Of a stretch of 18,462 nt of DNA, positions 1 to 17,780 are shown piece by piece. The DNA is taken from assembly GCA_964587725.1 (NCBI GenBank), contig CAZPLO010000024.1, positions 1-18,462 of the forward strand, given 5' to 3'. Under the pieces are notes generated by a model, which saw only the letters and a list, made by a program, of their open reading frames with translations, made no database searches and was not told where the DNA came from. A program made the position numbers and the translations under genes. Every line of letters starts with the position of its first letter. The first letter of the stretch is position 1. This DNA comes from an uncultured archaeon (lineage in GTDB: Archaea > Altiarchaeota > Altiarchaeia > IMC4 > SCGC-AAA252-I15).

Positions 1-2813
1 TTGAACACGTTCGCCCACAGGCTGTCTACATTGAACTGGCGGTAGTAGCTTAGGTCGTAGTTGAAGCATTCATCAGGACAGAGTGCTGAGTCGCATTCCC
101 TGCAGGGGTCGTGTTCCCTGCTGGCGGGACGGTCGCGCGCGTCTCTGCCGGCTGTTTCGTCGCAGTCGGAGTCCACTTCCTCGCCGCTGCAGTATCCTGT
201 GCGGGTGCACGCGAACTCGGTGTCGGTGGCGTTCGGCTTCCAGTACCTGTCCCTGCTGTTCTCCTGGTCTCCGAGGACGGCAGGCATGTTGCCGTGTGTT
301 GCCGGCCCGACGTCGTCGTTGCAGTCCAGCCCCCCCGGGTCGGTCCTCACGTAGTCGCTGTATCTGAAGGTCTCTGACTTATACTCGTCGTCAACCACCC
401 TCACGCCGCCGTACCCGCAGTATCCTTGGGAGCCTATAGGGTCTCCGTTATCGTCTACGGGAAACCAGGTGTAGCATGTGAGGTCCCAGTTGCCCCAGTC
501 GGTCCCGGACGGCAGGCTCTCACACGCCGAAATGTCGCGGTCTACCACATCCTTCCACTGGCACTGGCTGTTGTGGAGTTCGCAGTCTGTGCGGCTGCAG
601 GTGGTGCAGTCTGGGCTGCACCCGCTACACGAAGTCCAAGCACCCCCCACGTTTTTCTCGCATGCTCCGTCGTGCAGTTGACACCCTGGTTCGGAGCATC
701 CTCCGCAGGGGTTGCATCCGCTGCAGGGGTTCCAGTCGAATTCCCGGCAGCACGTCCACCCCTCCCAGTAATCTGATTCCGCAGCACACGGCATCAGATA
801 CCTTTTCCAGTCCAGCACATCAGACTTGACTTCACGGTCTCCGCCGGGTCCCAGGACGTCTATGTGCATCCAGTAGCCCTCGCCTCTCCACTCCGTCTCC
901 TTGACGAAGTAGGCGTTGACGTTGGTGGTTATGGATTCCATGGAGTCCTGGACGATGGCCGAATCCGGTATGCCGCTTTCGTAGTCGAGTTTGCCGTCGT
1001 ATACTCCGTCGCCCCACTCGTATAACGGGTTCTCCGCCGCCCGCATGTCCTCCAGGTCCAGGTAGCCGTAGTAGTCTGCTTTTTTGTCGAGGTACCCGCA
1101 TTCGCCTGTGAGTGCGTGTCTGGCGGAGCCGAGGGTGCAGGATGTGTCGCCGGGTTCGCAGGTGTCGCACCCCCATATCCTCTCCACGGACCGGTTGTTC
1201 CACCATAGGGTGTTGTCCAACGTGGTCTCCTTGAACTCGGGTTCGGAGTCGAAGATTTCATACTCGAATCTCCCCATCCTAGCCCCCATCCTCGAGTACT
1301 GGAACCCTTCGGTGTATAGGTCGGGGTAGTCGTAGTATTTTCCGGCGTCCACCAGCTGGTATACGCATTCTGTGAAGCCTTCCTCCCACACGCTCTCCCG
1401 GTAGTCCGTTTCCCCATCCGGGTTGATAAACACGTCGTCTTTGCAGTTGGTCGTGATCCTGAGTTTGCCTTGAAGGTCGCAGGACCTGACCAGTATATAA
1501 TCTGTATGGTATCTGATGCCGAATGTGTTAAGGTCCGGGTCGGCGGCCAACCGGTCCACGAGGTCGCGGTCGTTAACGCCTATCACGGTGTATTCGCTGC
1601 TGACAACCAGGTAGTCGGAGTAGTCCTCCTCCGTCCCGGAGGTTAGGGGCTGCAGACGCAGGTAGGCTGCGTTGCTCGACTCGCTCAGGTCTTTGACCCC
1701 TATTGACACGACGTTGGAGCAGTCGGGGTCCGCGTCCCAGCTCACTGAATCCCCTACTATCCTGCCGCAGGTGTATTCTCCGTCGTTCCAAACGCGTATT
1801 AAACGCAGGAAACAGTTAAGCCGGCTTTTATCCCCGAAGGAGGCTATCAGGGGTTCTGGCATGTACTCGTCGTTCAGCCCGTACACCTCGCTCAAGCACT
1901 CCCTGTCGGATCCCGTCCCGTCGCACTCCAGGTTTATGTTCCCGAATCGGTCTACCTGCACGTCCGCGTAGAACCGTTGGTCGCTGCACACGGGGTCGTT
2001 GGGGTACCAGCATCCGCATGCGTAGCTGGGGTACCTGTATTCGCCTTCTGCACTCCGGGTGGTCATGCACCTGTCGTCGGCTGGGTCCGGGGTGCACGAC
2101 TCCGTACTGTAGCCTCCCCCGTCCACCGTATACCAGAAGCTGCAGGTGTTGGCTGAGCACGTGTAGGGGTCCAGGTACCTGTAGCTGCTGTCCCTCAACT
2201 CGAAGTAGAGTCTGCTGCTGGGGCTGGAGCCCCTGCAGTACTCGTCAATCTGGGCGCCGCCCGCGATTCCTATGACGTTTCCCCTCCGGACGAAGCTTCC
2301 GTCGGGCACCCTGTCCATGAGGTGGCCGTAGTATGCGGTGTAATCCCCGTTTTCGTCGATGCCGTATACGGGCACGTCCAGGGTCTCACCCATCAGATCA
2401 AGGGTCTCGTATCCTGAAACGTATATGTCGCCGGAAACGAGTTCGACGGCGCAGCCGAGGGAATAATAGTTGGGGTCGTAATACGGGTCGCTGCCCAGGT
2501 GGTATGTTTCGTTGAACCAGTAGACTACTCCGTCGAACGCCGCATACACGGGCTCGCCGTCTTCGGCGTGCAGGTCGACGCCGTAGTGCCCTCCTGTCCC
2601 AAACCCGAAGTCCGCTTCACAGAGGGAGTCTTCGGGTTCGTCTGCCAGCTGCGTGGACTTCACAGGCCACACCATGTCGAATGGGACGCTGCATACGTGA
2701 CAGCATTCGAAGGGGTCGTATGTCCCGGCTGGACAAAGCACCGCGGAAGCAGTTGGTGATAGCAGAAACAGTGCGGCAGCGGCTGCTAAAACTGTGATGC
2801 GGGAGAGCTTCAT
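1..2813 (-). CDS. Large secreted Cys/Asp/Tyr-rich protein with an N-terminal M23/LytM peptidase-like domain (3' end beyond window, >=937 aa)
   Basis: Absent from the ORF track because there is no stop in the window. Manual translation from ATG 2813 gives no stop down to position 3. It begins MKLSRITVLAAAAALFLLSPTASA|VLCP (Sec signal peptide, A-S-A cleavage site). M23 hallmarks: WPV (aa 49-51), HYGVDLHAEDGEPVYAAFDGVV (H76, D80), YTAYYGHL (H164), VRRGNVIG, RLYFELR...YLDPY. About 50 Cys by manual count. TATA box 25 nt upstream of the ATG. Confidence 0.9.
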   Translation of the reverse strand, partial: MKLSRITVLAAAAALFLLSPTASAVLCPAGTYDPFECCHVCSVPFDMVWPVKSTQLADEPEDSLCEADFGFGTGGHYGVDLHAEDGEPVYAAFDGVVYWFNETYHLGSDPYYDPNYYSLGCAVELVSGDIYVSGYETLDLMGETLDVPVYGIDENGDYTAYYGHLMDRVPDGSFVRRGNVIGIAGGAQIDEYCRGSSPSSRLYFELRDSSYRYLDPYTCSANTCSFWYTVDGGGYSTESCTPDPADDRCMTTRSAEGEYRYPSYACGCWYPNDPVCSDQRFYADVQVDRFGNINLECDGTGSDRECLSEVYGLNDEYMPEPLIASFGDKSRLNCFLRLIRVWNDGEYTCGRIVGDSVSWDADPDCSNVVSIGVKDLSESSNAAYLRLQPLTSGTEEDYSDYLVVSSEYTVIGVNDRDLVDRLAADPDLNTFGIRYHTDYILVRSCDLQGKLRITTNCKDDVFINPDGETDYRESVWEEGFTECVYQLVDAGKYYDYPDLYTEGFQYSRMGARMGRFEYEIFDSEPEFKETTLDNTLWWNNRSVERIWGCDTCEPGDTSCTLGSARHALTGECGYLDKKADYYGYLDLEDMRAAENPLYEWGDGVYDGKLDYESGIPDSAIVQDSMESITTNVNAYFVKETEWRGEGYWMHIDVLGPGGDREVKSDVLDWKRYLMPCAAESDYWEGWTCCREFDWNPCSGCNPCGGCSEPGCQLHDGACEKNVGGAWTSCSGCSPDCTTCSRTDCELHNSQCQWKDVVDRDISACESLPSGTDWGNWDLTCYTWFPVDDNGDPIGSQGYCGYGGVRVVDDEYKSETFRYSDYVRTDPGGLDCNDDVGPATHGNMPAVLGDQENSRDRYWKPNATDTEFACTRTGYCSGEEVDSDCDETAGRDARDRPASREHDPCRECDSALCPDECFNYDLSYYRQFNVDSLWANVF
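558..734 (-). repeat. Two tandem ~32-aa six-Cys repeats within the large secreted protein
   Basis: WNPCSGCNP-CGGCSEPGCQLHDGACE versus WTSCSGCSPDCTTCSRTDCELHNSQCQ. The Trp codons are 96 nt apart (734 and 638). Confidence 0.8.
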
Positions 2814-2837: not shown

Positions 2838-2856
2838 TTATATAATCCGGGTTTCA
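2838..2856 (-). promoter_or_regulatory. Archaeal TATA-box promoter of the M23-like gene (probably leaderless)
   Basis: The minus strand reads TGAAACCCGGA-TTATATAA. TTATATAA (2838-2845) lies 25 nt upstream of ATG 2813. Confidence 0.65.
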
Positions 2857-3921
2857 GGCCCCGGTCAACCTGACATAGGACGTGGAGGTGGAAACCGTCT
2901 CCGGCGTCACATAACCTATTATCCTGCCTTCGTCGGCCACCAATGCAAGCTTCTTCGACAGCAGCGTCTTCAACGCGTCCTCCACGTTAGTATCCGCCTC
3001 CAACACCACATAGTCGGAGCCTTCCGTGTCGCCTACGGGGGATTCCGCGTCCACACGCTCCACGTCGTTCAAGTCCAATACTCCGCTGAGCATTCCGTCG
3101 GAGTCCACCAGCAGATACTTTCTCCTGTCCGGCCGGTACACCAGCTCCATGAAATCCCTCCACGACAGGTTCTTGTTGGCGTAGCTCATGTGTGGGACGG
3201 CGATGTCCCGCAGCCTAATGCCCCGCACCATCCTCCGGAGGTTCGCGTACTTCATCTCGCTGCTGCCCGCGTACGACAGGAACACGCCGATTATAATCCA
3301 CCACAGGTTCCCCATCAAAAGGCCCAGGAAGGCTAGCGTCAGGAATATGAACTGCCCCACCATGGTGGCCACTCTGGTGGCGCGTCCGTAGTCCATCCAC
3401 AGCGCCAGCACGCCCCTGAAGACGCGGCCGCCGTCCATGGGGAACGCAGGCAGCATGTTGAATGCGCCCAATATAAGGTTGACTGAAATCAGCACGCTGA
3501 GTATGCCGGACACGCTTCCCATGCTGAAGGTGCCCTCGAATATGCTGGACACCACCTCGTCGTATCCTATGAACTCCGCGTTTGACAGAACAAGCAGGGC
3601 TCCGCCGATGCCCGCGAGGAGGAAGTTGAACATCGGCCCAGCAGCCGACACCTTCAGCTCCAGCAGCGGGTCCTCCGGCAACTCTATGCTCGCCAGCCCG
3701 CCGATGGGCAGTAGAGTTATCTTAGGCACCTGTATGCCGTGTATCATGGCGGTGAGGGAGTGTATCATCTCGTGCGCCAGAACGACCGTGAATATGATGG
3801 CGAAGAACATCAGCGCCTGCACGCCAGCACCCAACAGTATCAAGGCGAAAAACAGCAGGAATGTTAGATGGAGTTCAACGGATATTCCCGCCACCCTGAA
3901 CAGCCGGTAAGACCACTTCAT
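2854..3921 (-). CDS. Site-2 protease (peptidase M50, SpoIVFB-like) with C-terminal CBS domains
   Basis: HExxH (HEMIH) within a TM segment, AAGPMFN, FNMLPAFPMDGGR (NPDG motif), multiple TM helices, and a CBS-like C-terminus (LLVDSDGMLSGVL; LVADEGRIIGYVT). Confidence 0.93.
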   Translation of the reverse strand: MKWSYRLFRVAGISVELHLTFLLFFALILLGAGVQALMFFAIIFTVVLAHEMIHSLTAMIHGIQVPKITLLPIGGLASIELPEDPLLELKVSAAGPMFNFLLAGIGGALLVLSNAEFIGYDEVVSSIFEGTFSMGSVSGILSVLISVNLILGAFNMLPAFPMDGGRVFRGVLALWMDYGRATRVATMVGQFIFLTLAFLGLLMGNLWWIIIGVFLSYAGSSEMKYANLRRMVRGIRLRDIAVPHMSYANKNLSWRDFMELVYRPDRRKYLLVDSDGMLSGVLDLNDVERVDAESPVGDTEGSDYVVLEADTNVEDALKTLLSKKLALVADEGRIIGYVTPETVSTSTSYVRLTGA

Positions 3922-11019: not shown

Positions 11020-11112
11020 GCTGGACAATACATAGGAAGCCATTATAATAAAACAGCAAAACCCAAACTCGTTGTACAATGTTCAAAACCCTTGTTTTTC
11101 GCCGATTTCAGA

Positions 11113-11159
11113 GTATTTAAGCGTGAAATACCCGTATTTAACAACGCCAGAGAGGCGTT
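11113..11159 (+). promoter_or_regulatory. Putative promoter and operator of the giant orphan gene
   Basis: GTATTTAA occurs twice (11113-11120 and 11134-11141). Inverted repeat AACGCC-AGAGA-GGCGTT (11143-11159) lies between the second TATA and ATG 11171. Confidence 0.5.
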
Positions 11160-11170
11160 TGCCCGACACC

Positions 11171-14100
11171 ATGACGACCAGCCAAAACAACAGTCAGGGA
11201 CCGCAGAGACAGCGGCAGCGCCAGCCCACCCAACAGGACCTCGACCAGCAAGTCCAGGACATGGACGCCAGAGATCTTAAGTCCCATAGACCCCCTAAAG
11301 TCAACATCTGCAGCAACATGCCGGGGGAATACACCAAACCCCAGTTCATGGCCGCTGTCAGGGCATTCATAGCCCCTACGTTCGAAAAGGGCAAGCCCGT
11401 GCTGATATGCGACACTGAAGCCTCCAAACCGTCTGGCAGAGGAGCCCTGCCTGAATTGGTCGGCGGAATACGCACCCTACTGCGGAGGGCGCGTTCGTTC
11501 GAGGACAAGGAGCGGTTCGTGCAACAGTTCGGCCATGCCAAGGAGCAACGGGACGACGTTTCAGTGGACGAGATTGCGGGCGTCATACAAAAAATGCTTC
11601 TGAACACCACCGTCGACGTACACGAGTTCAAGCCGCTGATGACCGGCTACGACCCTCAGGACGTGTTTGAGGACATATTCTCAGAGGCGTCAGTAAGAGC
11701 GCTGAAGAAGGATGACGAGACCCCCGCTCAGTTCAGGGAACGCATGGAAAAAAACGGGCTTCCCGGCATCATGCACCGCATGAAAAAGAGGAAAGTCTCC
11801 GGCTTCGAAGAAGGGGAGGAGGCCACCGTCGCCGACGCGTTGGCGTTGGCCCGCTGGGGCCACGAGTCCAGCGATATGCTGGGGATATCAGACGCGAGCA
11901 AGGAAGTATACAAACGACTTCAAGAAGCGATTCCCGAATCCCTGCAGGGGGCATTCACCTATATGGACCGGGACGGTCACGTCCGTGAACTGGAGAACGT
12001 TCCCAGGGAACTGGAGAGAATGGGCGTCCAGTTCAACGACTACCTGTTCAACAGCCTGGCCTTCATTACGCGGGACATGGCCATGCGGGTCCACGACCGC
12101 TACGAGGCGGTCAAGATGAGGTACCCACCTGAGAGAAGATGGGCCCGCCACGCCATACAACTGGGTGTGGGAGACCCGAAGGCATGGCATAAGGCGCATT
12201 CGGTGCTGAACCCATTCCATAACGCCCACGGAGACATGCTCGCGGAATTCCGGGAGCGTCCGGACCTTACCGTATACGAGAAAAACATGACGATGGCCGC
12301 CCACAAAGGCCTGGACGACGTGTTCGCACAGAAGGGGAGCGTCTACGGGGTGGGCAACCCCCAGTACAAATTCGATTTCCTTCGCCACATGCTGGAGGAG
12401 TTCAGCTTCGACTTCCGAGACCACGAAGGTCCGCGACCCGACTTCCAGAACGAGACAGAATACCAGCGTCAGACGGCCGAGAAACTATGGGCCCGCATCA
12501 ACAACCAGGTGGTGCGGGACCCCGAAACCGGGGAGATAGTCATTGGCCAGGAGCATCGGGACGCCAACGTCCAGGACGTTGTGGTGGAGGGCCTGCCTAA
12601 ACTCCAGGAAGCCACCCTGGCCTATGTGCTCCGAACCTGGGGGGGAACCGACGAGGGGGCTGAAGTATCCAAGATACGGGGCTACGACATGCTCATAAAG
12701 GATGCTTGGAGCGCTGAAGACCTGACGAAAGCCCAGCGCAGGTCTCTGGTGGCGGCGGTAAACCAGTCCACCGGCAAGAAATTGAAACACGCGGACGAGA
12801 TAGACCGGGAAGACCTGGACGGCCTGAGCGACCAGCAAATAGCCGCAATGGGAATGGACCGGGAGACTGCGGTCAATGGGGCCGCGAAAGCCCGCCTAAT
12901 GCACGACATCAAAAGAGGATTCTACATCTACTCATACACGTTAGCCGACAAAGTCCACATGCTAGACCGCCTGAGAACCGACGTGGACCTACGGATGCGC
13001 ACGGTCTTCCACCACCAGGGAGCAGACCAGAGCGCATACGAGCTCCTGCACTACGGTATGGGTCAGCTGGCGAGGGACCCGGATAAGAGAATAAAGGTTC
13101 CGGAAGGCAGCGTTACCGCAGGGGACGTGAGAACATACGCCTACGCCTTACGCGACATGAAGGGGTTGGTGGGGCAGCTGTTCTGCAGCACCCAGTGGAG
13201 GCAGGCTAGCAGCACGGACACGTCCGACCCGAAGCTAGCAGCCAAGAGAAAAAGCGCAATGGACGACCTGGTGATATCCGTCCTCACCAAGCAGCAGCGG
13301 GAGTTGATTGCGTCGCTGGTCGGCAAAGACAGGATAAGCAGGGAAGCCCTGTTCCACACACTGAAGAACGTGGAGAAGCGTTTCGAGAAAGACCATAAAG
13401 ACATGCTCGCGTTCGCGATAGGGCCCTCCAGGTACGACAAATTCCACGACCCGTCGACCGGCGCATTGATGGGCAGCTACAGTTCAAACTTTGTCACAGA
13501 GGCCTTGAAGAACTCGGCGCCGTCGGGGCTTCCAGTCGAAGAGCAGGAATACTACGGGAGAATCCGCATGGCCAGGCTGCTCGGAAAATACGGGGACAGG
13601 CTTAAGGCCCTGCGTGCGCCCCTGAAAAACCCCTACGCCCCCATAGGGTACTCCCTGGTGTTCGGCAAAGACACGGAGGTGGAGAGGAACGCTTTGATAA
13701 ACGACATGGCGGCGGATTTGTTCTCCACCGACGGTGAATTCTCCCGCATCGGCAAGGCGATGCAGCAAAAGTCATTCCAGGACTATGTGGATTCCCTGGG
13801 TTCAACGGAAGAGAATGCGTCCCCGGAGTTCCTGGCAGCCCGGCAGATGTACGTGTTCCTCCAGAACACCCACGCCCGCTACCGCGGATTCGGGGAGCTG
13901 CTGATGGAATCCAACACCTACGGACGCCAGGGTCTGGCTCCGGTCAACCTAGACGCGTCGACCGTCTTCGATGCCATCACCACATTGGACCCCGAGAAGG
14001 GCGCCCGCATCAAGGTGCAGGAGTTCACATCCTCCGAGAAGGTGCGTTCGCCCAGGTCGAGGGCTCCGGGTCTGGAAAACACGACAGTAATGAACGGAGT

Positions 14101-15859
14101 GTCGGTGCTCGACGGCGCGTGGGCTCACGAGCAACGGGCGATACAGATTCTCACCGAAGACCCGTACAGCAGGGAGTTCATACTCAACCTGGCGAGGAAC
14201 CAGTCAGCACATCGTGAAATAAGCACTGCACTGGCGGTCGGCAAACCCCTGGACCTCCGTGAGGTGGTCGGAATCCTGGACCGCCACGGCGTGGACAGGA
14301 GACACCCAGCATGGGATGAGGCTAGGGCTGCTGTGGAAGAGGGCCGGGAGGTAGACGCCGGAGGAGTGGAGTCTGCCCTATCCAACATACACGGTGAAGC
14401 CCTCAGGTCCACGGCTCGGCACCTGGGGTTAACAGACTACGACATGGGAGACCTCAGCCAGTGGATGCACTACTACTCGAACGCCATGCTGGAGCAGGCC
14501 GACGGCAAGATGATGTCCGCGGTCGACGACCTCACAAAGGCGTACAGTTACGCCCGGAAATTCACCTCCGCAGAGGACGGAGTCAACCTAGCAGTCGTAA
14601 CACTCAACACCCGCGGCTGGGCCAAGAAGGACATCGGGGAGATGACTCCGCAGACGAACAAGGGAGCCGTGAAGAAATACTACCAGCACGCGTTGGACGA
14701 CTTCACCGCCGCTTGGAAGACATCAAGGGGCGAGAAACTCACATACGAGCTGAACACCAGCAGATGGTTTATCGCCGGGTCGCTGTACTGGCTGAGGCAG
14801 CGTTTCGTGGACGCAAACAGAGCCCCCGTGGAGGGCGAGAACGCGGAAGCCATGGCGGGCATGGGGGTTATGCAGTCGAAGCTCAGCAACCTCTCCCGGG
14901 TGAGCGGCGAAGACAACCGCAAATGGTTCATAGGCGTGGGAATCGGAGCTCCGCTTCTGGGGGCGGCAGTCGCCGCTCCAATAGCCGGTCTTGCGGTCGG
15001 CGCCGCATCGTTGGGGTTCACCTGGGCTTCGGAGAGACTCCGACTGGGAGAGAAATGGACGAATGAAGCGACGGCGGCGATGGAGGAGCGCCCGGAGGGT
15101 GGCAGAGGATACATACGGACGTACGAGGACCGTGTGGTGAAATACGCGAGGGCGGAGTCGCTGGTGAACAGCGGAGACCGTTCTCTGTTCCGCTTCTTCA
15201 GGGGCAACTTTGCGACGTTCAGATGGGATGCGGGAGCCATGCGCAGATACGACCAGGCCGCCAGGACTCTCGACCCGCTCACACACAACCACATAGTCCA
15301 CGCCCACCACGTCCGGATTGTGGAGGATCAGGACCCTGCGCTGCAGCTGGACCTGTACTATGACTCCTACCTGGTCCGGCTGCTGAAGCGTCAGGCCCTG
15401 GAGCGGCAGGGCAGATACTATGAGGCCGCATGGGGTGCGTTGGACAACCGCCTCGACGACATGACAGTCAACAGGACGACGGAGTTGTACGACATCGCCC
15501 ACAGAAACAACAGCATACAGCCGAACCTGTGGGGCCGCGCGCTATCGCTGGTGACATTGGGGGGTTTGAGCAAGTACACGGGCAGGAGGGCTGCGGTCAG
15601 CATGCTGTTGAACCGCATAGGCTCCCAGCCAGATGAGGCGGATGAGGCGAGTCCCGCGTTCGACAACCGGAGCGCGGTGCTGCTGCGGCAGCTGGGATAC
15701 GGGGACAGGGCTAAAGAGCTGTGGGAGGCCGCCCGAGACAAGTGGGAGCCGGCGTTCCAGAACGACAAAAACATACTCAAGTCGGATTCACTCAGGGGGC
15801 TGCTGACAAACGCAAGCCACTACCTAAACGGGGAAGCACCCACGTGGGAGTTCAGGTGA
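11171..15859 (+). CDS. Giant hypothetical protein (~1562 aa), apparently mostly helical, with a 34-aa Gly/Ala-rich hydrophobic segment
   Basis: Uninterrupted 4.7-kb ORF with GC-rich third positions like its neighbours. ATG 11171 is preferred to the track start at 11072, whose extension runs through the putative TATA region. No family recognised. Confidence 0.85.
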   Translation: MTTSQNNSQGPQRQRQRQPTQQDLDQQVQDMDARDLKSHRPPKVNICSNMPGEYTKPQFMAAVRAFIAPTFEKGKPVLICDTEASKPSGRGALPELVGGIRTLLRRARSFEDKERFVQQFGHAKEQRDDVSVDEIAGVIQKMLLNTTVDVHEFKPLMTGYDPQDVFEDIFSEASVRALKKDDETPAQFRERMEKNGLPGIMHRMKKRKVSGFEEGEEATVADALALARWGHESSDMLGISDASKEVYKRLQEAIPESLQGAFTYMDRDGHVRELENVPRELERMGVQFNDYLFNSLAFITRDMAMRVHDRYEAVKMRYPPERRWARHAIQLGVGDPKAWHKAHSVLNPFHNAHGDMLAEFRERPDLTVYEKNMTMAAHKGLDDVFAQKGSVYGVGNPQYKFDFLRHMLEEFSFDFRDHEGPRPDFQNETEYQRQTAEKLWARINNQVVRDPETGEIVIGQEHRDANVQDVVVEGLPKLQEATLAYVLRTWGGTDEGAEVSKIRGYDMLIKDAWSAEDLTKAQRRSLVAAVNQSTGKKLKHADEIDREDLDGLSDQQIAAMGMDRETAVNGAAKARLMHDIKRGFYIYSYTLADKVHMLDRLRTDVDLRMRTVFHHQGADQSAYELLHYGMGQLARDPDKRIKVPEGSVTAGDVRTYAYALRDMKGLVGQLFCSTQWRQASSTDTSDPKLAAKRKSAMDDLVISVLTKQQRELIASLVGKDRISREALFHTLKNVEKRFEKDHKDMLAFAIGPSRYDKFHDPSTGALMGSYSSNFVTEALKNSAPSGLPVEEQEYYGRIRMARLLGKYGDRLKALRAPLKNPYAPIGYSLVFGKDTEVERNALINDMAADLFSTDGEFSRIGKAMQQKSFQDYVDSLGSTEENASPEFLAARQMYVFLQNTHARYRGFGELLMESNTYGRQGLAPVNLDASTVFDAITTLDPEKGARIKVQEFTSSEKVRSPRSRAPGLENTTVMNGVSVLDGAWAHEQRAIQILTEDPYSREFILNLARNQSAHREISTALAVGKPLDLREVVGILDRHGVDRRHPAWDEARAAVEEGREVDAGGVESALSNIHGEALRSTARHLGLTDYDMGDLSQWMHYYSNAMLEQADGKMMSAVDDLTKAYSYARKFTSAEDGVNLAVVTLNTRGWAKKDIGEMTPQTNKGAVKKYYQHALDDFTAAWKTSRGEKLTYELNTSRWFIAGSLYWLRQRFVDANRAPVEGENAEAMAGMGVMQSKLSNLSRVSGEDNRKWFIGVGIGAPLLGAAVAAPIAGLAVGAASLGFTWASERLRLGEKWTNEATAAMEERPEGGRGYIRTYEDRVVKYARAESLVNSGDRSLFRFFRGNFATFRWDAGAMRRYDQAARTLDPLTHNHIVHAHHVRIVEDQDPALQLDLYYDSYLVRLLKRQALERQGRYYEAAWGALDNRLDDMTVNRTTELYDIAHRNNSIQPNLWGRALSLVTLGGLSKYTGRRAAVSMLLNRIGSQPDEADEASPAFDNRSAVLLRQLGYGDRAKELWEAARDKWEPAFQNDKNILKSDSLRGLLTNASHYLNGEAPTWEFR

Positions 15860-15863
15860 CAAA

Positions 15864-17780
15864 ATGCCTAGGAGCGTGACATCGGACGGAAGGCGCAGAG
15901 AAGAGCAGGAGATACCACAGGAGGAGCTTCCGGAAACTAAACCACCCTCTTTTTTCCAGAGGCACAAGAAACTGGTGGTGGGTGCGACAATCGGCCTGGC
16001 CTTGACAGTGACGGAGGCGACGATAGGGTTGCCGATAGGGAAGGTTTGGAGGGCCATAAGGAACCCTGCAGGCTATGCCGTCGGCGAAAGCACCAGACGG
16101 GCGGGGGATGCAATAAAAAATCGTATGGAAGCCGGCGCCGCAGGGGACCGGGTGGAGGACGAGGAAATCTCCAGGAAGGAGTTTTCCAGCATCCACACGG
16201 TAGCTCAGTCGCAGCTGTCCAGGGCGTTGAGGTCGGGGAAACTGTCCGACTACGACAAAGCCGCTGAGGCGTACGAGCAGGTCCTCGGCAACGACGAAGC
16301 CACCCCCCAGCAGAAGGCGTTGGCACATTATCACCGGGCTCAGGTTAACCTGCAGTCCGCCCAACTTTGCAGCCGGAACTCGCCGCCTGACTGGTGGTCC
16401 ACCGTATCTCAGGAGGATAGGTTCTATACCGAGGAAGCGCAGCGGAGGTACGGGCTTGCCAGGGAAGGGTTTAAGGCGGCTTTGGAGGCCGACCCGAACC
16501 ACCCCCACAAGATTAGTCTGCTGATGGGTTGGGGGGCGGCGTCGATGGGCTTGGGTGACCGAAGCGACGCGTTGGAGGTGTTTTCACGTGTCAGGGACTC
16601 CCCTGAAGCCTCGGATGCGGAGAAAATGGATGCGGTTCAGAAGCTCGGAGAGGCTCGTGGGATGCCAGAGAAACCGATTGAGTGGAATTACATTCAAACA
16701 GGAGGCTACTTAAAAAGAGAAAGAAAACCTCAGACTCTCCCCCAGACGGAGGAGGCTGCCGCCCGCGAGACCTTCAGGGAGACGTCGGAGTATGTGGACA
16801 GGATGCTGTTCGCCGCCGAAAAAGCCGGGGACCTGAGCACATACGACACAGCCATCGATGAACTTAAGAGCATGGGGGGGGACGATAAATTGTCCGCGGA
16901 CCAGAGGGCCCTCGCCCTCTACCGTGCGGCCAAGGCCACCGTGGATTCTGTCAAAGCTGCTCCAGAGGGTAAGAGGGAGGAACGGCTTAGAGCCGCACTG
17001 GAAATATGCGAGATGCTGGACTCGGAAGCCTACAAGGACACAGACTGGGTCCAGGACGCTAACCTGCTCGCCGCGCAAGCACACATTAGCCTGGGCGAAG
17101 ACGAGAATGCGGAGAATAAACTTAGGGGCGTCATAAAATCGCCGAACGCCGAGAAAGAAGAGGTGTCTAAGGCCGCTGAAATGCTGAAGCAGCTGAACAA
17201 ACCAGTTCCTGAACCGTCTGCCCATGAGGAGCCGCCCTCCTCCAGGGAGTCTGCGGCCCCGGAGCATGTGGGGGAGCCGGAGCTGGAGAGCCTCGGCAGG
17301 TCCTCTCACCTGCTGGAGTTGAAGATAAAAAACGGCGGTACAATCATCATACTTTCCGAAGACGTTGAAGTGGATCCAGCCACGGGCGAGGCCAAGGTGA
17401 AGGAGGGCGTGGGTACTGTGAAGGCGGTAATCCCCCACACAGAGAAAGGCAATTACGTGCAGAAGAAGCCGTTCACGCCGTCCCCTGAACGGGTGGTGTT
17501 AGGCTCCGAGATATCATTCGACTCCGACAGGATTGAGTCGTTGACCGTCTTCGGAGAGAAGGAGGCGGAGCTTCTGCGTGAGAAAGAAATCAGCCCCCGT
17601 GAACGCGCCGAACGGAACTGGAGGAGGCAGATTCAGAGGCTTGACCGCATCGAAGACCTGAAGGAGAAGCAGTTGGAGGTTCAACGGTTGGAGAACCAGC
17701 AGAGGGAGTTAATGCGCCTGGACAGAGAGCACGCTATGGAGCATTTCAGGCGGATGCGTGAACTCCGCAGATACAGGTAA
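15864..17780 (+). CDS. Hypothetical protein with N-terminal hydrophobic anchor, duplicated TPR-like module and C-terminal coiled coil (638 aa)
   Basis: Hydrophobic LVVGATIGLALTVTEATIGLPIG after RHKK. TPR-like YDKAAEAYEQVL, ALAHYHRAQV, FKAALEADPNHP, LGDRSDALEVF. E/R/Q-rich C-terminus. Starts 4 bp after the upstream stop. Confidence 0.82.
   Translation: MPRSVTSDGRRREEQEIPQEELPETKPPSFFQRHKKLVVGATIGLALTVTEATIGLPIGKVWRAIRNPAGYAVGESTRRAGDAIKNRMEAGAAGDRVEDEEISRKEFSSIHTVAQSQLSRALRSGKLSDYDKAAEAYEQVLGNDEATPQQKALAHYHRAQVNLQSAQLCSRNSPPDWWSTVSQEDRFYTEEAQRRYGLAREGFKAALEADPNHPHKISLLMGWGAASMGLGDRSDALEVFSRVRDSPEASDAEKMDAVQKLGEARGMPEKPIEWNYIQTGGYLKRERKPQTLPQTEEAAARETFRETSEYVDRMLFAAEKAGDLSTYDTAIDELKSMGGDDKLSADQRALALYRAAKATVDSVKAAPEGKREERLRAALEICEMLDSEAYKDTDWVQDANLLAAQAHISLGEDENAENKLRGVIKSPNAEKEEVSKAAEMLKQLNKPVPEPSAHEEPPSSRESAAPEHVGEPELESLGRSSHLLELKIKNGGTIIILSEDVEVDPATGEAKVKEGVGTVKAVIPHTEKGNYVQKKPFTPSPERVVLGSEISFDSDRIESLTVFGEKEAELLREKEISPRERAERNWRRQIQRLDRIEDLKEKQLEVQRLENQQRELMRLDREHAMEHFRRMRELRRYR

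Follow-up and report, generated by a model that had tools for sequence, protein, structure and literature searches.

In the Enterococcus faecalis plasmid pCF10, the conjugation genes of the type IV secretion system (T4SS) run in the order prgH-prgI-prgJ-prgK. In the available part of PMC11323569, the LytM domain of PrgK (PDB 8S0U) is described as degenerate and free of metal, without activity in vitro, and with a possible regulatory function. T4SS-like machines have also been domesticated in archaea; for the Ced system of Crenarchaeota, the available part of Beltran et al. 2023 (PMC9905601) relates CedA to CedA1 as VirB6 is related to VirB2, with an N terminus homologous to the pilin. M23/LytM domains are tied to bacterial murein, and the occurrence of one in an archaeon without an evident murein pathway calls for explanation. 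Here we describe such a case. The window that we analyzed comprises the first 18,462 bases of contig C24 from the genome of an uncultured member of the Altiarchaeota (GCA_964587725.1; 1.56 Mb, 48 contigs, 92% complete). At its left end lies the front part of a gene, here called the giant gene, whose product is a predicted Cys-rich surface protein with a degenerate M23/LytM head, and the next gene downstream encodes a membrane protein with similarity to VirB2 and VirB6.

A first-pass annotation, made from the window's letters, had proposed that this protein engages bacterial or pseudomurein-like cell walls as a factor for adhesion, antagonism, or scavenging. The evidence presented below leads away from cross-domain wall lysis and toward a degenerate LytM tip on a giant protein that is paired genetically with a VirB2/VirB6-like channel protein.

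RESULTS

The giant gene spans two archaeal contigs

The giant gene enters the window as a stop-free open reading frame (ORF) of 937 codons on the minus strand, 3..2813 (-), which starts with ATG and is open at the window's left end; the first-pass annotation had already noticed it as an ORF of at least 937 amino acids (aa). Positions 1..55 of the window match the closing 55 bases of contig C28 (C28:14818-14872) with 100% identity, and the gene continues in frame through this overlap. Its remaining 1,164 codons lie on the minus strand of C28 (locus L003 11325..14819), where the terminal, 5'-open ORF encodes 1,181 aa whose first 17 residues (LSYYRQFNVDSLWANVF) are the last 17 of the window ORF. 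The joined protein has 2,101 aa and 118 Cys residues, and the front ~45% of its gene lies in the window. In a genome of the same genus (G001), the orthologue is one intact ORF of 2,241 aa with the same neighbors: IlvH and an M50 protease flank it at one end, a large membrane protein and aTrm56 at the other. Because a single ORF stands between identical neighbors in that genome, the C28-C24 join is independently supported. The upstream neighbor in the window, an M50 site-2 protease with a CBS domain at 2854..3921 (-), serves as a conserved synteny marker, and we do not claim it as part of the system discussed below.

Both contigs carry archaeal genes (aIF2 alpha/beta/gamma, a PcrB-family gene of the GGGP synthase type, an Fe-ADH_2 gene of the glycerol-1-phosphate dehydrogenase type, aTrm56, PAC2, S24e, and S6e), and the named relatives are metagenome-assembled genomes assigned to "Candidatus Altiarchaeota / Altiarchaeales." G+C content is even over the window, at 0.53-0.61. 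A bacterial/archaeal chimera, for which a junction near position 2850 had been considered, was rejected on the strength of the archaeal genes on both contigs, the even G+C content, and the gene order shared with relatives. The genome, at 92% completeness, contains one Mur-ligase-type gene, and control archaea without murein also give one; with this single gene, a murein or pseudomurein pathway is not evident.

The protein is rare. Only 40 matches to the 937-aa sequence were found among 1.84 billion representative proteins, and a search for related loci with the window protein (P0001) alone returned no relative; an alignment query did retrieve relatives. Its N terminus is hydrophobic, with a Kyte-Doolittle 19-mer maximum of 2.05 at aa 6-29. 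A hydrophobicity scan and an alignment of the N termini of relatives point to a putative signal peptide at aa 1-24 (MKLSRITVLAAAAALFLLSPTASA; 2742..2813 (-)); the reading of this hydrophobic stretch as a signal peptide proper, as in the first-pass annotation, is taken from the sequence. The composition is likewise as first described: 52 of the 937 residues are Cys (5.5%), 45 of them past aa 217, along with 11.1% Asp, 7.0% Tyr, and 2.6% Trp. The pI is about 4.2. Cys makes up 0-3.8% of the other 13 window ORFs. There are exactly three N-x-S/T sequons in the 937 aa, and they are those named before (NET101, NRS540, and NAT861).

The head has an M23/LytM fold and an altered active site

An M23-like domain had been placed at aa ~48-217. 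Pfam, a profile search of the PDB, Foldseek, VIA structural alignment, and family alignment together delimit an M23/LytM-fold head at aa ~45-220 (2154..2681 (-)) with a lineage-specific insertion at aa ~104-157, in agreement with that placement. The window ORF matches PF01551 (Peptidase_M23) at 40.8 bits (cutoff, 28.7; E = 2.6e-10); in the whole-genome scan this match falls into two stretches, aa 75-104 and aa 152-210, with the insertion between them, and it is the sole M23 match in the genome. Among orthologues, the same family scores 51.9 bits in P0002 and 45.8 bits in a 505-aa unit from G004, and P0004 falls just under the cutoff at 27.8 bits. A profile of 12 family members finds zoocin A (1.2e-9), lysostaphin (7e-6), and LytM (7e-5) in the PDB, as well as TagE, ShyA, and DipM; a single-sequence phmmer search of the PDB with aa 32-238 gave 0 matches.

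An AlphaFold model of aa 1-520 reached a predicted local distance difference test score (pLDDT) of 74.8 and a predicted template modeling score of 0.74, with core blocks at ~90. In a Foldseek search with this model, every one of the 56 matches at E<=1e-3 was an M23 protein, EnvC among them with a TM score of 0.72. VIA aligned the head model to 27 chains at Z>=8, led by DipM (Z 15.0; root mean square deviation [rmsd], 4.5; 135 residues aligned) and EnvC (Z 14.8; 2.7 A; 125 aligned), with several active enzymes at 12.8-14.3, SpoIIQ at 12.4, and the LytM domain of PrgK at 10.4. With profile and predicted structure in agreement, we regard the M23/LytM fold of the head as real.

The active site is another matter. 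In canonical M23 enzymes, we take HxxxD to supply the first His and the Asp zinc ligands and HxH to supply the catalytic His and the third zinc ligand, as in work on LytM and lysostaphin. The head retains the HxxxD motif as HYGVD (His76 and Asp80; 2574..2588 (-)) and the His of the "YxHL" motif within GHL (His164; 2319..2327 (-)). At the H-x-H position, it has R-L-Y (2205..2213 (-)), so that Arg201 and Tyr203 take the places of the catalytic His and the third zinc ligand; HMMER aligns "prlyfel" under PHLHFEM / PHLHYEV. This exchange is a property of the family. Among 15 members, the first HxH His is present in none and is Arg in 14, the second is present in 1 and is Tyr in 13, and R-L-Y as a whole replaces the motif in 13. 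Asp80 is kept in 14/15, His164 in 12/15, and His76 in 10/15, and three members lose both His76 and His164. All five catalytic or metal-binding residues occur together in 0/15.

By fold and sequence, the head is a degenerate LytM domain whose replacement residues are themselves conserved among orthologues. Having R-L-Y where H-x-H would be expected, it most likely serves in binding or regulation and not as a zinc endopeptidase. Wall hydrolysis by such a head is unlikely, and we infer that it is noncatalytic; a peptidoglycan-like ligand could possibly still be bound.

A long Cys-rich core leads to a membrane anchor

Behind the head, the giant consists of a Cys-rich core of ~1,800 aa. Its first conserved domain, at aa ~275-520 (1254..1991 (-)), is shared by the whole family, members without M23 included. 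It is followed in the window by a middle region, aa 521-937 (3..1253 (-)), in which Cys residues are densely clustered at aa ~655-745; many relatives begin a new gene at aa ~526. In the model of aa 1-520, the first core domain is built in blocks at pLDDT 80-90, and aa ~245-520 of that model found nothing credible among known structures (Z<=3.5). The final 581 aa of the main ORF were modeled separately; beta-strands predominate in this second model, whose pLDDT is 63.8 and in which only aa ~390-581 are confident (80-90); Foldseek returned no match for it at E<=1e-3, and VIA returned only Ig-like sandwiches at Z<=7.1, a background level. Both models are larger than recommended for single domains, and these negative fold results are to be read accordingly.

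No match to the core was found in Pfam, NCBIfam, or PHROGs, and the ESM Atlas gave no usable match for the half encoded on C28; NCBIfam has no match in the giant, its C28 part, or the anchor described below. In the same three family collections, SLT/muramidase, CHAP, and NlpC/P60 domains are absent from the 2,101 aa and from the orthologues. The Cys residues are strongly conserved, with nine invariant and five near-invariant positions in aa 1-520 and 1 and 11, respectively, in the last 581 aa. Since so many of them are invariant or nearly so, they are taken to be structural; they may bind metal or form disulfides, and stabilization of the giant by disulfides is plausible from this pattern. The genome has one DsbA-type gene; VKOR was not found in it.

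Recovery of the rest of the gene also revealed how the protein ends. One nucleotide after the TAA stop of the main ORF (L003 11321..11327 on C28), a separate 181-aa ORF begins, with its own hydrophobic N terminus and a C-terminal transmembrane (TM) helix, and this ORF equals the C terminus of the 2,241-aa protein of G001. An alignment of 8 sequences, drawn from at least two families, shows conservation of the TM helix and of a tail motif, MSYR[FW]F...DF...GKK. Because the anchor is fused in G001, the ancestral form is read as a giant ectodomain preceded by a signal peptide and followed by a TM anchor and a short tail. The separate 181-aa anchor ORF, set against the fused ORF of G001, may reflect a true split of the gene, or it may be a variant of the strain or of the assembly.

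The head is an optional part of the giant

We surveyed 60 relatives, grouped as families f1 to f9, of which f1 is the family of the window genome. With the window protein as the query, the giant was found in 19/20 genomes of f1, 2/2 of f3, and 1/1 of f4, and in none of the 22 genomes of f5 and none of f8 or f9. Within f1, the core is present in the same 19/20 genomes, and PF01551 is found in 9/20 (genera g1 to g5). Two giants from other genera illustrate the difference. That of G011 (2,650 aa) has no Pfam match and begins at the core; that of G023 (2,286 aa) also has no Pfam match, and its first ~500 aa do not match the family profile. In hhalign comparisons, the domain from aa ~275 of the window protein onward aligns to both at 99% probability, and no M23 remnant was detected at either N terminus. 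Both share the downstream landmarks and the anchor with the window giant. As orthologous giants in other genera lack the head and keep the core and anchor, the head behaves as an exchangeable tip. In many relatives, the head and first core domain form a free-standing gene of 450-550 aa, and the remainder is divided into one or two more genes.

Family f5 contains a conserved protein of ~290-336 aa with weak to moderate M23 matches (L059 2910..3782 (+) in G042; L061 2486..3496 (-) in G024) that is unrelated to the head of the giant. We rejected these matches as markers of the same system because the proteins, at 290-336 aa, lack a hydrophobic N terminus and are encoded beside radical-SAM-type genes. 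In G042, the small M23-like gene adjoins a gene for a 794-aa protein (L059 4115..6499 (-)) that has long linkers rich in Ser/Thr and a C terminus rich in Cys.

The gene after the anchor encodes a VirB2/VirB6-like membrane protein

The next gene downstream of the giant, on the same strand, encodes a membrane protein of ~1,006-1,036 aa with a hydrophobic, signal-like N terminus, a VirB2-like hairpin, a polytopic region that could be aligned across 6 orthologues, and a long low-complexity tail. It matches PF18895 (T4SS_pilin) at 27.1 bits against a cutoff of 26.6 and the NCBIfam Mbov_0395 pilin-like conjugal transfer family at 25.2 bits, under the cutoff. Among 13 proteins of the neighbor family, 5 match the pilin family and 3 match TrbL (PF04610), always at profile positions ~106-211. 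By hhalign, the family aligns with 13 free-standing VirB2/TrbC-like pilins of this genome at 96.4% probability (E = 1.1e-9), which shows homology between its hairpin and those pilins. A precomputed PF19590 label on P0044 was not reproduced.

This gene directly follows the anchor in 7/7 distinct genomes whose loci extend that far, on the same strand as the giant and after short gaps of about 4-105 nucleotides. The conserved tail motif, the short gaps, and the shared strand together suggest that the giant and the VirB6-like gene are coexpressed. A complex prediction for aa 31-470 of the VirB6-like protein with aa 60-181 of the anchor ORF scored 0.00 ("no answer"), which is neither support for binding nor evidence against it. 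In 2 of the 13 neighbor proteins, the cytoplasmic tail resembles the DNA-binding helix-hairpin-helix family HHH_5, at 68.3 bits in G023 (L017 12867..15098 (+)) and at 21.6 bits, under the cutoff, in G011 (L016 16427..18553 (+)); these tails hint at a channel protein that handles DNA. The copy in the window genome has no HHH_5 match.

Further T4SS-like genes lie elsewhere in the genome

The genome contains 15 matches to PF18895. Contig C41 (L050) carries a PrgI/VirB3-like gene (33.8 bits), a gene for a 756-aa VirB4-like ATPase (P-loop_TraG, 84.5 bits; AAA_10, 54.7 bits), and two VirB2-like genes, beside an aminoacyl-tRNA synthetase gene. The VirB4-like gene was identified through PF12846 and PF01935 and, in the protein scan, through PF19044; PF03135 (CagE/TrbE/VirB4) has no match in the genome. 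The same operon occurs in G001 (L062 7209..18989 (-)), where it contains three pilin genes and is accompanied by another candidate VirB6-like gene. Upstream of it, that genome encodes further uncharacterized proteins of 398, 682, and 1,059 aa.

The VirB4-like ATPase was found in 52/61 genomes, including 20/20 of f1, 22/22 of f5, 2/2 of f3, and all those sampled from f4, f6, and f7, and not in f2. Its best matches are mostly 61-86% identical, nearly order-wide. This conservation, together with the housekeeping flanks, marks a chromosomal core system, not a mobile element.

Two other contigs hold related genes. On C3, nine VirB2/TrbC-like T4SS_pilin genes (110-135 aa) form a tandem array (L038 8813..12285 (+)), an unusual expansion that adjoins genes for an AglB/STT3 oligosaccharyltransferase, two undecaprenyl-diphosphate synthase-family prenyltransferases, and glycosyltransferases. 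On C7 (L039 1..7498 (+)), two large membrane proteins are encoded in tandem, and the second (1,438 aa) and the VirB6-like neighbor are paralogues (27% identity over 377 aa). The first large ORF, of at least 1,100 aa and clipped by the contig start, was considered as a second giant and rejected; BLASTP showed no similarity (E = 0.25).

The window itself contains a second very large ORF, at 11072..15859 (+), with a TTG start, 1,595 aa, and 0.25% Cys. Neither Pfam nor NCBIfam has a match for it, and its one hydrophobic stretch is near aa ~1270. This ORF is followed by a 638-aa ORF (15864..17780 (+)) with only weak TPR-type matches.

DISCUSSION

We read the giant as an extracellular arm, anchored in the membrane, that belongs to a domesticated T4SS-like apparatus and bears a noncatalytic LytM head comparable to that of PrgK, and we give this reading roughly an even chance of being correct. 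The protein would be built from a signal peptide, a distal M23/LytM head, a long, acidic, mostly beta-stranded and Cys-rich core, and a C-terminal TM helix with a short conserved cytoplasmic tail. It would provide contact or adhesion for the apparatus, which would be chromosomal and comparable to Ced/Ted, and its gene would occupy the position that LytM-bearing PrgK holds beside VirB6-like PrgH in Gram-positive conjugation systems. What suggests this is the parallel with pCF10: a LytM-bearing extracellular protein is encoded beside a VirB6-like gene, and the LytM domain of PrgK is likewise degenerate. Coupling to the T4SS-like machine, whether physical or functional, would be expected on these grounds, and so would a role in adhesion or contact.

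Several observations weigh against this reading. The sole link between the giant and the T4SS-like genes is same-strand adjacency, and the genomes that share the synteny are close relatives and not independent witnesses. The VirB4 operon stands at a separate locus. Family f5 has the VirB4-like gene in 22/22 genomes and the giant, with the window-protein query, in 0/22; a T4SS-like system therefore need not have a giant, unless the f5 homologue is too diverged to detect. The VirB6 assignment of the neighbor leans on subthreshold matches and hairpin homology: the TrbL (PF04610) scores of its family, 20.1 (for the neighbor itself), 19.3, 17.5, and 17.6 bits, are all under the cutoff of 25.9, its T4SS_pilin matches are only at or barely above theirs, and the neighbor-family profile gave 0 matches in the PDB. 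Because the core has no recognizable fold or family, a role as an adhesion arm is drawn from architecture alone. Finally, the head retains three of the five M23 active-site residues, and since R-L-Y is itself conserved, an unusual catalytic or metal site is conceivable from sequence.

The first-pass annotation holds in describing an archaeal, Cys-rich giant with a genuine M23 fold that is secreted or surface exposed. Its further proposal, that action on bacterial or pseudomurein walls is the purpose of the protein, is not supported, given the loss of HxH, the noncatalytic nature of the closest folds, the optional head, and the T4SS-like partner.

A milder form of that proposal is that the LytM head binds bacterial peptidoglycan or stem peptides without cutting them, making the giant a cross-domain adhesin that tethers the archaeon to bacteria independently of the T4SS-like genes. 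We consider this unlikely, and it has points in its favor. The fold is genuine, three of the five groove residues are kept, and the conserved Arg/Tyr pair in place of HxH suggests that a ligand site has been maintained. No other M23 domain was found in the genome, and with one Mur-ligase-type gene, an endogenous murein-type substrate is not evident. The giant is long, anchored, and surface exposed, and in the available part of PMC11323569 the degenerate LytM domain of PrgK is modeled as able to bind peptidoglycan. The distribution argues otherwise: the head is dispensable, with the core in 19/20 and M23 in 9/20 f1 genomes and no remnant in G011 or G023, so wall binding cannot be the common function of the giant family. 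Several characterized degenerate LytM domains are also known to bind proteins, as PDB entry titles indicate for EnvC (amidases), DipM, and SpoIIQ (SpoIIIAH).

Another reading dispenses with both wall and secretion system. The giant may be a structural protein of the envelope, such as an S-layer-like protein, a sheath, or an appendage subunit, with its VirB6-like neighbor reflecting shared envelope biogenesis or chance kept by vertical descent. Its chromosomal position between housekeeping genes is fixed across families; the protein combines large size and an acidic, beta-rich, Cys-rich character with a TM anchor; envelope genes (AglB/STT3, prenyltransferases, and glycosyltransferases) adjoin the VirB2-like array on C3; and the relatives are close kin, so that conserved synteny is weak evidence of function. 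Yet frequent division into two or three ORFs and exchangeable heads would be unusual for a lattice-forming protein, and the conserved tail motif, short gaps, and strand shared with the VirB6-like gene speak for a closer tie to that gene. Typical archaeal S-layer glycoproteins also have more sequons than the three found in 937 aa, which are few. We judge a purely structural role to be rather improbable.

A more ambitious version of the extracellular-arm reading combines several of these elements: an order-wide, vertically inherited T4SS-like machine with VirB2, VirB3, VirB4, and VirB6 homologues, for which the giant would be a docking arm with clade-specific heads. The head seen here would be a LytM domain that recognizes peptidoglycan without cutting it, docking on bacterial walls for cross-domain transfer of DNA or protein. 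Taken as a whole, this scheme is quite doubtful.

More improbable again is that the head works as a secreted and catalytically active M23 endopeptidase with which the archaeon would attack or scavenge bacterial walls. HxxxD and the YxHL His are intact, Pfam scores the domain over its cutoff, and the sequence matches include the active enzymes zoocin A, lysostaphin, and LytM. Against activity stand the change of HxH to Arg/Tyr, the lack of the full residue set in all 15 members, and the loss of His76 and His164 as well in three of them. The best structural matches are inactive LytM domains, and the head is fused to an anchored stalk of 2,000 aa and not released. A provirus, integrated conjugative element, or other mobile element, with the giant as a tail, fibre, or entry protein tipped with a wall-degrading domain, is hardly credible: M23 domains do occur in phage tail and ejection proteins (phi29 gp13, the cyanophage A4 pre-ejectosome, and the A-1(L) baseplate are among the structural matches) and there is a weak PHROGs match (phrog_7767, metallo-endopeptidase, 22.5 bits), but the locus is flanked left and right by housekeeping genes whose order is shared by two families, G+C content is uniform (0.53-0.61), no integrase, capsid, or terminase gene is nearby, PHROGs has no match for the core, anchor, or neighbor, and the VirB4-like gene is 61-86% conserved order-wide.

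If the link between the giant and the T4SS-like genes holds, it would give a handle on how uncultivated subsurface archaea contact other cells and provide a natural case in which a LytM domain has been retained for a nonmurein role. The locus would add a large extracellular partner to the few archaeal T4SS-derived systems and extend such systems to the Altiarchaeota. The core of ~1,800 aa, with no match to a known family or fold, is a target for structure determination. Our literature search, which did not extend to subscription journals and supplements, found no account of the giant, of M23 domains in Altiarchaeota, or of an altiarchaeal T4SS-like system.

Among described proteins, PrgK invites the closest comparison. 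Both are membrane-anchored extracellular proteins with a degenerate LytM domain; PrgK is encoded among genes for VirB6-like (PrgH), VirB3-like (PrgI), and VirB4 (PrgJ) proteins, and this genome has Pfam matches to PrgI and VirB4-type ATPase domains in addition to the VirB2/VirB6-like neighbor. The head model aligns to the LytM domain of PrgK at Z 10.4 (rmsd, 2.8; 117 aligned), and DipM, its own top structural neighbor, is also that of the PrgK domain in the available part of PMC11323569. The differences are equally clear. PrgK is a VirB1-class wall-remodeling component, and the same part of that paper presents it with further extracellular muramidase (formerly SLT) and CHAP domains, to neither of which the giant has a match. 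PrgK has lost both HxxxD and HxH, whereas the head has lost HxH alone. The ~1,800-aa Cys-rich core and C-terminal anchor of the giant have no counterpart in PrgK, and the host of the giant has no evident murein.

EnvC, DipM, and SpoIIQ, which provide the best structural matches of the head, share with it the M23 fold, incomplete metal-binding or catalytic residues, and a role, here presumed, in protein binding or regulation. NlpD of Escherichia coli is a further noncatalytic LytM factor. EnvC and DipM activate hydrolases, according to entry titles and the available part of PMC11323569, and SpoIIQ forms a sporulation channel; the head belongs to an archaeal host without an evident amidase or murein context and forms the tip of a protein that is both giant and anchored. 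The active M23 endopeptidases lysostaphin, LytM, zoocin A, and ShyA are homologous to the head in fold and sequence, and HxxxD and the YxHL His are common to both. The head differs from them in RxY for HxH, an insertion of ~50 aa, an archaeal host, and fusion to an anchored stalk.

With the Ced/Ted systems for DNA import in Crenarchaeota, in which CedA/TedA are VirB6-like, CedA1/TedC VirB2-like, and CedB/TedB VirB4-like, the present genes share a chromosomal, domesticated T4SS-like set and a VirB6-like protein with a pilin-related N terminus. The available part of PMC9905601 contains no mention that we found of a giant extracellular partner, VirB1, a hydrolase, Altiarchaeota, or DPANN. No sequence similarity to Ced/Ted was seen, although no direct comparison was made. 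The genes described here differ from Ced/Ted in their altiarchaeal lineage, the presence of a PrgI/VirB3-like gene, the expanded pilins (15 matches), and the gene for a giant extracellular partner. Degenerate LytM domains and domesticated archaeal T4SSs are thus known kinds; their combination, the giant core, and the lineage are new.

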